Shown: piece by piece, positions 2,674 to 7,101 of the stretch | How positions within the stretch are numbered: the stretch's first letter is position 1 | Layout: every line of letters starts with the position of its first letter | From: a virus | Taxonomy: Duplodnaviria > Heunggongvirae > Uroviricota > Caudoviricetes | DNA length: 7,432 nucleotides | Strand: one strand, 5' to 3' | IMG/VR virus record: IMGVR_UViG_2548876951_000007 | Program-made: the position numbers and the translations under genes | Notes under the pieces: model-generated | Told to the model about the DNA's origin: nothing | The model's database searches: none | What the model saw: the letters and a program-made list of their open reading frames with translations, nothing else

Positions 2674-3360
2674 TCACTCCTTCTCTTCTTTTCCGTAGTG
2701 GAGTTGGCCAATTTTGATAAGAGGGCGTCCCTGAGATTTGCGGTGTAGATTGGTATCGCGCAGAGAATACACACAGCCACAATATTCCTGCTGATAGAAT
2801 TTTTCGCGCTTGCTGATTTCAATCATACGGGACGAGCCGCCCTGCTTGCGCCAGTTATAATCCCAGTACACCATACCCGGATAATGCGCAACAGCTCGCC
2901 GCCCACACTCGTTAATCTGCTGCATATTTTTCCAGCGTGAAATGCCCAGTGAACTGCTGATCACACTGAAACCATTTTCAGCAGCGTACAACGCTGTCCG
3001 CTCAAAACGCATGTCAAAACACATGGTACAACGGATCCCCCTCTCAGGCTCCCATTCCATTCCTTTGGCACGTTCAAACCAGTTGTCGGTGTCGTAATCA
3101 GCATCGATAAACGGCACGCCGTGTTGTTCAGCAAAGCGAATATTTTCATCCTTACGAATTAAATACTCTTTCTGAGGATGAATGTTCGGGTTGTAGAAAA
3201 AGATGGTGTAGTCGATTCCCGAGGCCTGAAGCGCCTCCATCACTTCACCGGAACATGGAGCACAGCAAGAGTGCAGTAGTAGTTTGTTTGCCCCGTTTGG
3301 GAGCTCCAATTTAGGCCGTTTGAAATCAGCAATAGTCATAAATATTTTTATTGGGGTCAT
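2674..3360 (-). CDS. queH: QueH-like (DUF208) epoxyqueuosine reductase family protein, putative Fe-S enzyme
   Basis: 228-aa ORF with an N-terminal [11 protein letters not shown] motif, a central [10 protein letters not shown] and a C-terminal EYCGCVYS. This Cys pattern matches what I recall of the QueH/DUF208 family. The start is uncertain: neither ATG 3360 nor ATG 3339 has a clear SD. Confidence 0.55.
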
Positions 3361-4964: not shown

Positions 4965-5390
4965 TTAGTGCATCACCACAGCATTCCCTGCCGGGCCGCC
5001 GCGATTCATCTGGTCATACAAAACAACCGCTGACGCAACAAAATCATCGACATCCTTCACCAGCCGATCCCTCCGTTCGACGATCTCACGGTAATATTCA
5101 GAACTGTGGCTGCGCATACGGGCCACCAGCAAAGGCGGCATCGCCTTTTCGATCGCCGGTAACAGAGCCTGCATTTTTTCAACAGCATCAGGGGTGTCTT
5201 TATCCAGCCAACGGAAAATTTTCTGGGTATTACGGGCCAGGGCTTCCGGATGGCTGTCGTCGTACAGTTCAGGGAACGTCATCCCCAGTTCGAAATAAGT
5301 CCGGGCTATTTCAGCTGCAGGAACTTTCTCACCATCAGGGTATGCCCAGGCATTCATCGCCATGCGGATGTGCTCATGTTTGATTTTCAT
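4965..5390 (-). CDS. ydaT: YdaT-like prophage protein
   Basis: 141-aa ORF with ATG at 5388-5390, overlapping the upstream Cro-like gene end by 17 nt (translational coupling). Size and position (third gene after the repressor, second in the cro-side operon) match Rac ydaT. Assigned by synteny and recalled similarity, not by search. Confidence 0.55.
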   Translation of the reverse strand: MKIKHEHIRMAMNAWAYPDGEKVPAAEIARTYFELGMTFPELYDDSHPEALARNTQKIFRWLDKDTPDAVEKMQALLPAIEKAMPPLLVARMRSHSSEYYREIVERRDRLVKDVDDFVASAVVLYDQMNRGGPAGNAVVMH

Positions 5391-5697
5391 GAATCATTTG
5401 CCTCTTGATGCTTCGGGTATGATCGTTTTCGTCATTTGGTTGCTTCATCGACATATTCTGCGAATAACATGACGAGCGTCGTAAGTATGTCCAATCAACA
5501 TCAGGACGAAGTTCTTCACACAGGACACCACCTTTTGTTGCTCGTTCAATCGCAGGACATCTCTCAGCAGGTAACTGACGTACACCTTTGATCCATTGAT
5601 TTACGCTTGGAGGAGATACACCTAAAAGCCTAGCCATTGCTGATTGCCCACCGACAACAGCACAAGCTCGTTTGAATGAATAGTTATCTTTTTTCAT
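5374..5697 (-). CDS. ydaS: Cro-like HTH DNA-binding protein (YdaS-like)
   Basis: 107 aa from ATG 5695-5697 with GGAG 10-13 nt upstream; the track start at 5718 is GTG and lies upstream of the predicted transcription start. HTH segment QSAMARLLGVSPPSVNQWIKGVRQLP. Transcribed divergently from the repressor gene. Confidence 0.65.
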   Translation of the reverse strand: MKKDNYSFKRACAVVGGQSAMARLLGVSPPSVNQWIKGVRQLPAERCPAIERATKGGVLCEELRPDVDWTYLRRSSCYSQNMSMKQPNDENDHTRSIKRQMIHENQT

Positions 5698-5724
5698 CGA
5701 ATGAACTCCAAAAAACACGCAACA

Positions 5725-5792
5725 ATATTAGGTTTAGCCTAATGAAATTGTCAATAGGCTATGCCTAATACATCGAGAGTAGGGATTGCCTA
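5725..5792 (-). promoter_or_regulatory. cro-side (PR-like) promoter with three operator-like dyads
   Basis: On the minus strand: -35 TTGACA (forward 5749-5754), an 18-nt spacer, -10 TAATAT (forward 5725-5730). Three TAGG-N5-CCTA dyads at 5729-5741, 5755-5767 and 5780-5792, with centres 26 and 25 bp apart. Confidence 0.5.
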
Positions 5793-5821
5793 ACGCGATG
5801 CGCATAGGAGACTATTAAGCA

Positions 5822-6298
5822 ATGCTTAGTGGTAAAGACTTAGGCCGAGCGATAGAGCAGGCCATTAACAAAAAAATTGCATCAGGAGCCGTCAAATCAA
5901 AGGCGGAAATCGCACGTCATTTCAAAGTCCAACCACCATCAATCCATGACTGGATTAAGAAAGGTTCGATAAGTAAAGACAAACTTCCAGAACTATGGCG
6001 TTTCTTTTCTGATGTGGTTGGTCCAGAGCATTGGGGGCTTAACGAATACCCCATACCAACCCCATCCACTTCAGATACAAAAAGTGAACTTTTAGACATA
6101 AACAGCCTTTATCAAGCCGCCTCTGATGAAAAAAGAGCAATTGTGGCTTTCATCTTATCTGGAAATGCTACGGAGCCTAGTTGGGTTGATCATGACGTTC
6201 GCGCCTACATTGCCGCAATGGAAATGAAGGTAGCTAACTATCTGAAAAATCAAGAATCAAAACGGAAAAGCCAGAACATCACCAAGACAGGAACTTAA
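5822..6298 (+). CDS. racR: prophage repressor, RacR-like HTH protein
   Basis: 158-aa ORF with an N-terminal HTH (SKAEIARHFKVQPPSIHDWIKKG), divergent from the Cro-like gene and flanked by operator clusters. Length and synteny match Rac racR. Confidence 0.65.
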   Translation: MLSGKDLGRAIEQAINKKIASGAVKSKAEIARHFKVQPPSIHDWIKKGSISKDKLPELWRFFSDVVGPEHWGLNEYPIPTPSTSDTKSELLDINSLYQAASDEKRAIVAFILSGNATEPSWVDHDVRAYIAAMEMKVANYLKNQESKRKSQNITKTGT

Positions 6299-6312
6299 AC
6301 TTATATGGTCCG

Positions 6313-6334
6313 ACGGGAAATTCCTAGTTCCCGT
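6313..6334 (+). terminator. possible terminator hairpin after the repressor gene
   Basis: ACGGGAA-N8-TTCCCGT, a perfect 7-bp inverted repeat about 15 nt after the racR-like stop. The downstream T-tract is weak (TAGTTAACT). Confidence 0.3.
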
Positions 6335-6374
6335 TAGTTAACTCCTACTACCTCTCCCACAAACCATCACCTAT

Positions 6375-6435
6375 TAGGTTGCGCCCAGATTATTAGGCAT
6401 AGCCTATTGACAAGTAATTAGGCATTTCCTATAGT
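6375..6435 (+). promoter_or_regulatory. rightward (PL-like) promoter with three operator-like dyads
   Basis: -35 TTGACA 6407-6412, a 17-nt spacer, -10 TATAGT 6430-6435. TAGG-N5-CCTA dyads at 6394-6406 and 6419-6431, plus an imperfect one (TAGG-N5-CCCA) at 6375-6387. Nearly identical to the cro-side promoter but in mirror orientation. Confidence 0.5.
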
Positions 6436-6616
6436 TTTCCCATACCAACCCATCCCGTCCCACACAATACAGGGCAATACCTCGAGTTACCAGGCAGTGG
6501 TCAGGGGTTAAGTAGCCAGCCCGAGGCGTAAGAACATGACGGCAGGGTTCAACTTTAATAACTATGCAGCAGGTTTTTGTTCCGCTACCCCGGCGTTAAG
6601 GGGAAATGAGGTCAGC

Positions 6617-6769
6617 ATGGATACTATCGAGCTTGGCAACAACGAATCTCTGGTATGCGGCGTGTTTCCCAACCAGGACGGCACGTTTACCGCGATGACA
6701 TATACCAGAAGCAAAACGTTTAAAACTGAAGCTGGCGCGCGTCGCTGGTTAACCAGAAACACTGACTGA
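6617..6769 (+). CDS. small early-operon protein (about 50 aa; possibly YdaF/YdaG-like)
   Basis: ATG 6617-6619 with GAGG about 7 nt upstream; first gene downstream of the rightward promoter. An alternative start at ATG 6536 (77 aa) also has GAGG 9 nt upstream. No motif recognised. Confidence 0.45.
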   Translation: MDTIELGNNESLVCGVFPNQDGTFTAMTYTRSKTFKTEAGARRWLTRNTD

Positions 6770-6780
6770 TGAGGTTGACG

Positions 6781-7101
6781 ATGGAATTTAAAGATTTACC
6801 AGTACCATTCCAGGAAATGGCATCGAATGTGGTTCGCTCTCAACTGGCGACTCTTGACCTGAGTACCGTAGAAAAAGAAACCATCGACAATATATCCGGT
6901 AACGTACGCCGAGCCTTTATCGGGCTGTACGAAGAGAAGCAGCTCTCTGATAACCAGGATTTACATGAAAAATACTTCCTGGATCTAATGGACATCATTG
7001 ATAAGGGGTTTGGCTTGTTAATGAAAAAGAAAGGGATTCGAATAGAACCCCTTGAAAATTACTTTGCAACAAAAAGCATTAATTCTTTTGATTCAAAATA
7101 A
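6781..7101 (+). CDS. hypothetical protein (106 aa)
   Basis: ATG 6781 with GAGG about 6 nt upstream, 12 nt after the stop of the preceding small gene (operon-like spacing). The track start at 6769 is an upstream in-frame ATG without an SD. Its 3-prime end overlaps the convergent ORF 7079..7354 by 23 nt. Confidence 0.45.
   Translation: MEFKDLPVPFQEMASNVVRSQLATLDLSTVEKETIDNISGNVRRAFIGLYEEKQLSDNQDLHEKYFLDLMDIIDKGFGLLMKKKGIRIEPLENYFATKSINSFDSK

Follow-up and report, generated by a model that had tools for sequence, protein, structure and literature searches.

From which promoter are the genes beyond the repressor gene of a Rac-type prophage transcribed, and is that promoter held by the same repressor that controls the divergent ydaS-ydaT operon? 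The question is raised by a stretch of 7,432 nucleotides of viral DNA (IMG/VR record IMGVR_UViG_2548876951_000007; here called the window), in which racR lies between two clusters of operator-like dyads, each of them built around an outward-facing promoter. We refer to the side of racR that faces the cro-like gene ydaS as the cro side, and to the opposite one as the far side. The explanation that best accounts for all observations, to which we assign a probability of about 0.8, is an immunity switch of two cassettes controlled by RacR, in which the far-side cassette would be the equivalent of PL of phage lambda. The cro-side half of this switch is already known; the far-side half can provisionally be taken as a PL/OL, so far apparently undescribed, that belongs to a known repressor and is both conserved and expected.

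The repressor locus and what is known of it

The window carries an immunity switch that belongs to a lambdoid prophage of Escherichia coli of the Rac type. Positions 5300-6900 match hundreds of complete E. coli genomes with up to 99.9% identity (the genes being annotated there as racR, HTH protein, YdaT family and DUF1391); of 5426 complete genomes, 4368 show at least a partial match to these positions, and in 557 the match covers the greater part of them. RacR scores 246.3 bits (E = 1.2e-73) with the NCBIfam equivalog model NF049929, above its curated cut-off of 200, and is 91% identical to RacR of strain K-12 over 158 amino acids. The ydaS-ydaT operon adjoins the repressor gene divergently on the opposite strand, as is characteristic of RacR, and its first product is 85% identical to K-12 YdaS. 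YdaT has been described as the CII equivalent (PMC11879457, PMC9986795), and a close copy of the YdaT-box motif reported in the same two papers is found at the ydaS/ydaT junction (Table 1). In a prophage that is 99.9% identical, the operon following the far-side cassette comprises DUF1391, dicB, an exonuclease gene, xis and int.

RacR is modeled as a helical N-terminal domain of the Xre/cI-like type, a disordered linker (residues 79-90) and a helical C-terminal domain. No Pfam domain and no S24 (LexA-like) autocleavage domain were found in the protein; homologues with the RacR N-terminal domain do carry Peptidase_S24. A profile search of the PDB with RacR returned no solved relative, and Foldseek gave only weak matches of the N-terminal domain to HTH structures of the Xre/Cro/cI type (E > 0.1) and none for the C-terminal domain. 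RacR works like lambda CI, yet it stands outside the CI/LexA family.

Various aspects of cro-side regulation have been established in K-12. Three GCCTAA/TTAGGC repeats and three RacR complexes in EMSA were reported for the racR-ydaS region (Krishnamurthi 2017, PMC5700373). Transcription starts were subsequently mapped, one for ydaS (-35 TTGACA, -10 TAATAT) and three for racR (PracR1-3), the strongest of the latter promoters being leaderless; DNase I footprints of RacR extended across the intergenic region, and operators of the form (T/A)TAGGC-n3-GCCTA(T/A) were defined, with one lying on PydaST and another at the racR ATG (Wisniewska 2022, PMC9638921). Later papers of the same group describe four inverted repeats and a RacR octamer (2023, PMC11014345; 2025, PMC11879457), which was observed by size-exclusion chromatography and interpreted as four dimers on the four cro-side sites. 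Thus the statement of the preliminary description that operators of RacR-type switches are not well characterized does not hold for the cro side, where they were published in 2017-2025. Within the literature that could be searched in full text, including the papers closest to RacR, no description of the far-side cluster was found. As far as their accessible text goes, the K-12 RacR papers place operators in the racR-ydaS intergenic region only and, with regard to RacR binding, mention neither sites on the side of ydaG, ydaF and kilR nor looping; nor did the accessible literature yield a RacR-binding assay, a footprint or a mapped transcription start on the far side.

Operators and promoters on the two sides of racR

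The sequence TAGGNNNNNCCTA occurs exactly five times in the window, against an expectation of 0.02, and none of 200 shuffles reached this number; all five copies fall into the two clusters (Table 1). The five perfect TAGG-N5-CCTA dyads listed in the preliminary description were thus confirmed in their positions. Its claim of three dyads per promoter stood for the cro side, which actually has four sites, one of them degenerate, and failed for the far side, where two operators and a half-site make no clear triplet.

Table 1. Predicted genes, promoters and operator sites of the repressor locus (positions in the window)
Feature	Positions	Strand	Sequence, assignment or remarks
ydaT, CII-like	4965..5390	-	Pfam YdaT_toxin, 2.8e-10
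ydaS, Cro-like HTH, first gene of the rightward-equivalent operon	5374..5697	-	Pfam YdaS_toxin, 3.8e-30; P22_Cro, 1e-8
YdaT-box-like inverted repeat, ydaS/ydaT junction	5380..5397		TTGATTTTCATGAATCAT; one mismatch to TTGATT-N6-AATCAA
PR-like promoter (PydaST)	5725..5754	-	-35 TTGACA 5754-5749, 18-nt spacer, -10 TAATAT 5730-5725; 10/12 matches
Operator dyad in PR spacer	5729..5741		TAGGTTTAGCCTA; overlaps -10 by 2 bp; corresponds to published O1 over the ydaST promoter
Operator dyad at PR -35	5755..5767		TAGGCTATGCCTA; abuts -35
Operator dyad, racR promoter region	5780..5792		TAGGGATTGCCTA; conserved in related loci, near -42 relative to the start of the repressor gene
Degenerate fourth cro-side dyad	5815..5827		TAAGCAATGCTTA; spans racR ATG (5822-5824); read from sequence
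racR, 158-aa CI-like repressor	5822..6298	+	NCBIfam RacR equivalog NF049929 and K-12 identity
Weak third far-side site	6375..6387		TAGGTTGCGCCCA; one-mismatch scan; left half ATTAGGT alone conserved
Far-side operator dyad at PL -35	6394..6406		TAGGCATAGCCTA; abuts -35
PL-like promoter	6407..6435	+	-35 TTGACA 6407-6412, 17-nt spacer, -10 TATAGT 6430-6435; 11/12 matches
Far-side operator dyad in PL spacer	6419..6431		TAGGCATTTCCTA; overlaps -10 by 2 bp
Predicted PL leader, C-rich	6442..6616	+	Fold z-score +1.19, no better than shuffles
DUF1391 (ydaF/ydfA-like), first ORF of the PL operon	6617..6769	+	Pfam DUF1391, 9.3e-28

On the cro side, the intergenic region contains the TTAGGC/GCCTAA repeats to which the K-12 orthologue is known to bind, and the four dyads at 5729-5827 overlap the -10 and -35 boxes of PydaST and the start of racR, as in the OR region of lambda. 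The dyad nearest to ydaS reads TAGGCTTAGCCTA in the 99.9%-identical genomes. The fourth, degenerate dyad has the form TAGGCAATGCTTA at the same position (about -6) in nearly all related loci, and for K-12 this site has already been published as an operator that covers the start codon of racR as well as its leaderless promoter PracR3 (PMC9638921). The hexamers and spacer of PydaST are those that were mapped in K-12 by primer extension and mutagenesis of the -10 box (PMC9638921).

On the far side, the dyads at 6394 and 6419 embrace an outward TTGACA-17-TATAGT beyond the repressor gene, which at the level of sequence is an arrangement of the lambda OL type. The imperfect dyad at 6375-6387, noted earlier, is present when one mismatch is allowed; of 30 distinct Rac-type variants, 29 keep its left half ATTAGGT, the right half being variable, and the site lies 19 bp, not 25 bp, from the neighboring dyad. 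One more match of this quality, at 6335-6347, is probably due to chance, since 1.7 such matches are expected per window and this one is absent from K-12.

A consensus sigma-70 promoter scan that covered 5300-6900 returned two sites only, both of them coinciding with the dyad clusters. These are exactly the two mirror-image promoters with near-identical cores proposed before: 22 nt, ATTAGGCATAGCCTATTGACAA, are identical between them, and both face outward from racR. In each, one dyad abuts the upstream side of the -35 box and the other lies in the spacer, reaching into the -10 box. Transcription from the PL-like promoter is predicted to start near 6442.

Between racR and PL of the window, the scan detected no intrinsic terminator; a 7-bp hairpin lacking a T-run is located there, at 6313-6334. 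Other lambdoid phages conserve the predicted PL leader, whatever their repressor, and a short conserved motif was observed in it at 6510-6528. The fold z-score of the leader and the lack of any Rfam match at E <= 1 gave no sign of a structured RNA or a nut site. Neither an N gene nor nutL is evident downstream of PL, and no boxA was found in the window.

Conservation of the far-side cassette

The dyad search in homologous prophages, proposed as a check in the preliminary description, gave the same picture. In K-12 Rac, the same two perfect dyads with TTGACA-17-TATAGT lie between racR and ydaG, and the whole 23-kb prophage contains just five perfect dyads, which form the corresponding pair of clusters around the same promoters as in the window. 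For a wider comparison, 25 loci were taken from a collection with one genome per species (by RacR alignment) and 120 from viral contigs (by cassette pattern); the N-terminal domain of RacR is encoded in 104 of the collected loci, representing 48 distinct repressors.

A far-side cassette of the form dyad-TTGAC(A)-N6-dyad, with the second dyad overlapping the -10 box (TAATAT, TATAGT or TACTAT), is located downstream of the repressor in the same orientation for 36 of these 48 repressors. The mirror cassette precedes the cro-like gene for 34 of the 48, and 30 have both. The far-side cassette lies 62-2459 nt past the stop codon of the repressor gene and always points away from it, the distance between the two cassettes being 591-2809 bp. 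Its hosts belong to Gamma- and Betaproteobacteria (Escherichia, Mixta, Morganella, Proteus, Erwinia, Achromobacter, Burkholderia, Pigmentiphaga and Herbaspirillum), and it is also found in viral contigs. Conservation is confined to the columns of the cassette and does not extend into the flanks; in many loci an intrinsic terminator (GC-hairpin and T-run) ends directly before it. For the other 12 of the 48 repressor variants, with 0.07-3 kb of sequence each, no far-side cassette could be recognized; these are mostly the variants with the most divergent N-terminal domains or truncated loci.

The gap between repressor and cassette, where there is one, holds cargo in the position of lambda rexAB. 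In one locus (L087) it encodes a 389-aa protein with an HSDR_N domain, and the cassette then precedes RdgC; PADLOC gave no matches for this cargo gene or for the genes flanking PL. The half-sites vary too little for co-variation of the clusters to be informative: distances were 4.2 within loci vs 4.5 between loci, and 2.2 vs 2.6. Matched GCCTT variants in both clusters were seen solely in L026, the locus that diverges most.

Such far-side conservation is what one expects of a working early-left promoter that the repressor controls, and not of a scar. A duplication of the cro-side cassette by recombination or gene conversion, with no function on the far side, would agree with the 22 nt shared by the two cores and with the high mosaicism of lambdoid prophages, whose flanking segments recur with other immunity regions. 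However, the cassette has been retained in three quarters of the repressor loci (36/48) and in two proteobacterial classes, its orientation is constant and it often stands just past a terminator while the flanks and the distance vary freely, and decay would not leave both dyads and both hexamers intact. We consider a duplication scar very hard to credit.

Two further alternatives accept the far-side dyads as functional, and both are improbable, although slightly less so than the scar. RacR might act there as a roadblock or insulator against read-through from racR into toxic genes of the left operon, or the sites might serve only as an anchor for the octamer, the left operon starting elsewhere. 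Indeed, the sites begin just 77 nt (6375) or 96 nt (6394) past the racR stop codon, the stretch up to them in the window is the one in which the scan found no intrinsic terminator, and Rho-dependent termination in or after racR is needed for silence of kilR in K-12 (PMC4150792). On the other hand, a near-consensus promoter is embedded in the dyads with exactly the geometry of the proven PydaST, a roadblock would be redundant in loci where a strong intrinsic terminator already precedes the cassette, and the left-operon genes rise as racR transcription falls. Alternatively, the dyads could chiefly be targets not of RacR but of the Cro-like YdaS, which would shut off early-left transcription late in induction. 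Proteins of the Cro type share the operators of the repressor, including those at PL, both in lambda and in CP-933P (PaaR2/YdaS; PMC8630535), and competition of YdaS with RacR for the operators of the cro side has been reported. Against YdaS as the main ligand, the far-side half-sites have the ATTAGGC sequence on which RacR gives footprints at the cro side. Moreover, lysogens make RacR but no YdaS and keep the left operon silent, and a drop in RacR derepresses it; at that, a role of YdaS would complement the best explanation rather than displace it.

Expression data for K-12 support repression of the far-side promoter indirectly. When C.Csp231I lowers racR mRNA, expression of ydaG, ydaF, ydaE and racC increases about 40-fold and that of kilR, ydaC and ralA more than 70-fold (PMC6765115); the same rise of the left operon was seen with CRISPRi of racR (preprint). 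Because racR transcription itself falls, read-through is excluded as the source, and the rise calls for a promoter past racR that RacR represses, for which the cassette at 6394-6435 is the evident candidate. Part of the derepression could be secondary to the action of YdaS/YdaT or to excision of the prophage.

The proposed switch and its relatives

In the two-cassette switch that we favor, dimers of RacR would bind palindromes of 13-17 bp (ATTAGGC-N3-GCCTAAT) arranged as two operator-promoter cassettes that flank racR and fire outward. As the palindromes are located at the -35 and -10 boxes, bound RacR would exclude RNA polymerase from both promoters by occlusion. The PydaST cassette (5725-5754, minus strand) is expected to control ydaS, ydaT and the replication genes, and the sites at 5780-5792 and 5815-5827, on the racR promoters and ATG, would provide autoregulation. 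The far-side cassette (6394-6435, plus strand) would control an early-left operon that starts with DUF1391 and proceeds in relatives with dicB or kilR, followed by exonuclease or recET genes, xis and int. Binding of RacR to the far-side cassette and its repression there are predicted from the sequence of the sites, and YdaS may bind at the same sites. This supports the initial reading of the locus as a lambda-like OL/OR pair, with a PR-like promoter for ydaS/ydaT, a PL-like one for the early-left genes and the same dyads at both, and extends it beyond E. coli.

Dimers of RacR may bind cooperatively. The earlier argument that the spacing of the dyads implies cooperative binding has to be withdrawn: the center-to-center distance of 25 bp is fixed by promoter geometry, one dyad abutting the -35 and the other overlapping the -10, and hence is no proof of cooperativity. 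Looping over long range, suggested at the same time, is plausible given the reported octamer of RacR and two-plus-two strong sites, and such an OL-OR loop, presumably held by the octamer, would span about 640 bp. It is not required, because the published model places the four dimers of the octamer on the four cro-side sites; the variable distance between the clusters neither supports nor refutes it. A bolder proposal is that the far-side cassette is a genuine undescribed RacR OL/PL bridged by the octamer to the cro side in a loop of about 0.64 kb, and that the N-terminal domain together with the paired cassettes constitutes a portable immunity specificity. We hold this fuller version as tentative, with the odds somewhat against it. 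If true, the octamer bridge would revise the published model, and the specificity would have stayed nearly identical in sequence throughout Gamma- and Betaproteobacteria, with exchange of the C-terminal domain for oligomerization or induction (RacR-type, S24 peptidase, others).

The closest known system is Rac of K-12, which shares with the window the hexamers of PydaST and their 18-nt spacer, the TTAGGC/GCCTAA dyads at the same offsets from racR (-93, -67, -42 and -7), and the far-side dyad pair with its promoter. The two differ in that ydaF of the window follows directly after the leader with no ydaG, in the replication and cargo genes (NgoMIV-type R-M, QueH and hok/sok in the window), and in a single-base change in the operator of the window next to the PR -10 box.

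As in the lambda immunity region (cI, cro, OR1-3/PR/PRM, OL1-3/PL), transcription of the repressor gene runs from the cro side in the direction of PL, both lytic promoters are overlapped by several operators that share a single consensus, and the switch has a leaderless repressor mRNA (from K-12 data), a CII-like activator and a repressor that is an octamer in solution. Adjacent operators are spaced by 24-26 bp here and by 23-24 bp in lambda. In contrast to lambda, RacR has no S24/LexA-type autocleavage domain and ends in a helical domain with no solved analogue, there are four sites on the cro side and two with a half-site on the far side, the clusters are separated by about 640 bp as against about 2.3 kb, N and nutL are not evident downstream of PL, and YdaS is reported not to repress racR.

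Prophage CP-933P of E. coli O157:H7 (PaaR2/YdaS/YdaT; Jurenas 2021, PMC8630535) is the published precedent for the arrangement in the window. It likewise has an octameric non-S24 repressor and a divergent ydaS-ydaT operon, and its PL-like promoter, with -35 and -10 boxes identical to those of PR and three OL operators, was shown by experiment to be repressed by both the repressor and YdaS (PMC8630535). At the same time, the repressor family and the operators differ, those of CP-933P being 18-bp palindromes with consensus GTTTAGTAA, and the toxin-antitoxin pair paaA2-parE2 sits between the CP-933P repressor and PL.

We regard the far-side cassette as an ordinary lambda-like OL/PL and a modest extension of a known system. 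The general view of such switches is unchanged, since this is the expected lambdoid layout; its value lies in completing the model of the Rac switch, in a compact and well-defined repressor/operator/promoter cassette, and in prompting a test of OL-OR looping with the RacR octamer. Rac prophages occur in a large fraction of E. coli genomes, and loss of RacR is lethal in K-12, unleashing YdaT, KilR and division inhibitors of the DicB type as well as excision of the prophage. If RacR controls a second promoter, its octamer could alternatively be understood after the model of lambda, and such a promoter would explain why the left arm (kilR, racC, recET, xis and int) and ydaST are derepressed jointly.

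Operator at the cro-side promoter and the ydaS/ydaT junction

The operator adjoining the -10 element of PR, the promoter ahead of ydaS and ydaT (PydaST), reads TAGGCTTAGCCTA in genomes that are elsewhere 99.9% identical to the window, and the same version occurs in 14 viral contigs with a repressor of the L137 type, one of the related loci collected for comparison. The two versions differ by one base, at a half-site position that is nearly invariant elsewhere on the cro side, and this change could weaken RacR binding at PydaST. At the ydaS/ydaT junction, the YdaT-box-like repeat has one mismatch to the published motif TTGATT-N6-AATCAA (PMC9986795, PMC11879457); this fits CII-like control of the PRE type, as reported in K-12.

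Coordinates of features in the window and in the related locus L087
Feature	Position	Strand	Remarks
Operator dyad adjoining PR -10	5729-5741		TAGGTTTAGCCTA in the window
YdaT-box-like repeat TTGATTTTCATGAATCAT	5380-5397		ydaS/ydaT junction
Hairpin ACGGGAA-N8-TTCCCGT	6313-6334		just 3' of the racR stop codon; lacks a T-run
Half-site pair ACCTA-T-TAGGT	6370-6380		CCTA directly 5' of the weak third far-side site
Predicted PL leader	6442-6616		C-rich (CCCATACCAACCCATCCCGTCCCACAC), unstructured
Leader motif AAGTAGCC(A)GCCCGAGGCG	6510-6528
Type II R-M pair	482-2495	minus	NgoMIV-family restriction endonuclease, C5 cytosine methyltransferase
sok antitoxin RNA match	2426-2606	minus	Rfam, 61 bits (gathering score 59)
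QueH, epoxyqueuosine reductase gene	2677-3360	minus	Pfam 4.8e-66
HSDR_N-domain protein region (L087)	1820-2989
Terminator/PL cassette region (L087)	3018-3103

Far side of racR, the PL leader and the cargo slot

The racR 3' hairpin has a counterpart at the same place in K-12 (ACGGAA...TTCCGT); its possible roles are weak transcription termination or processing of the racR mRNA. Further downstream, ACCTA-T-TAGGT consists of two half-sites placed tail to tail and is kept in nearly all Rac-type variants. Judged by its composition and lack of structure, the predicted PL leader is rut-like; together with the DUF1391 gene, it was found again in lambdoid phages with other repressors at 92-95% identity. 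The short leader motif recurs approximately 70-90 nt past PL in Mixta and at other loci (L006, L070), with a boxA-like CGCTCTTTA after it at L069. In L087, a relative of the Klebsiella/Raoultella type, a 389-aa HSDR_N-domain protein is encoded between the repressor and PL, where lambda has rexAB; an intrinsic terminator comes after its gene, and beyond that lies the PL cassette driving RdgC. A PADLOC search with this cargo protein gave no match.

Other genes on the minus strand

The restriction endonuclease match has an E-value of 1e-126. Lethal cross-talk with RacR is a known property of R-M system C proteins, which makes a prophage-borne R-M pair noteworthy. The sok match indicates a hok/sok-type module, and the QueH gene lies in the prophage early region.

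RacR DNA-binding domain with exchanged C-terminal domains

In Burkholderiales and others, the N-terminal DNA-binding domain of RacR, at 73-86% identity, is fused to Peptidase_S24 C-domains of 227-366 aa (loci L012, L013, L015, L025, L078, L085, L117, L121, and L123; proteins P0101, P0102, and P0114). Since these loci keep the same operators and both cassettes, with operator dyads at the -35 and -10 elements on each side of the repressor gene, a single operator specificity appears to be common to different bacterial classes, the C-domains being interchangeable.
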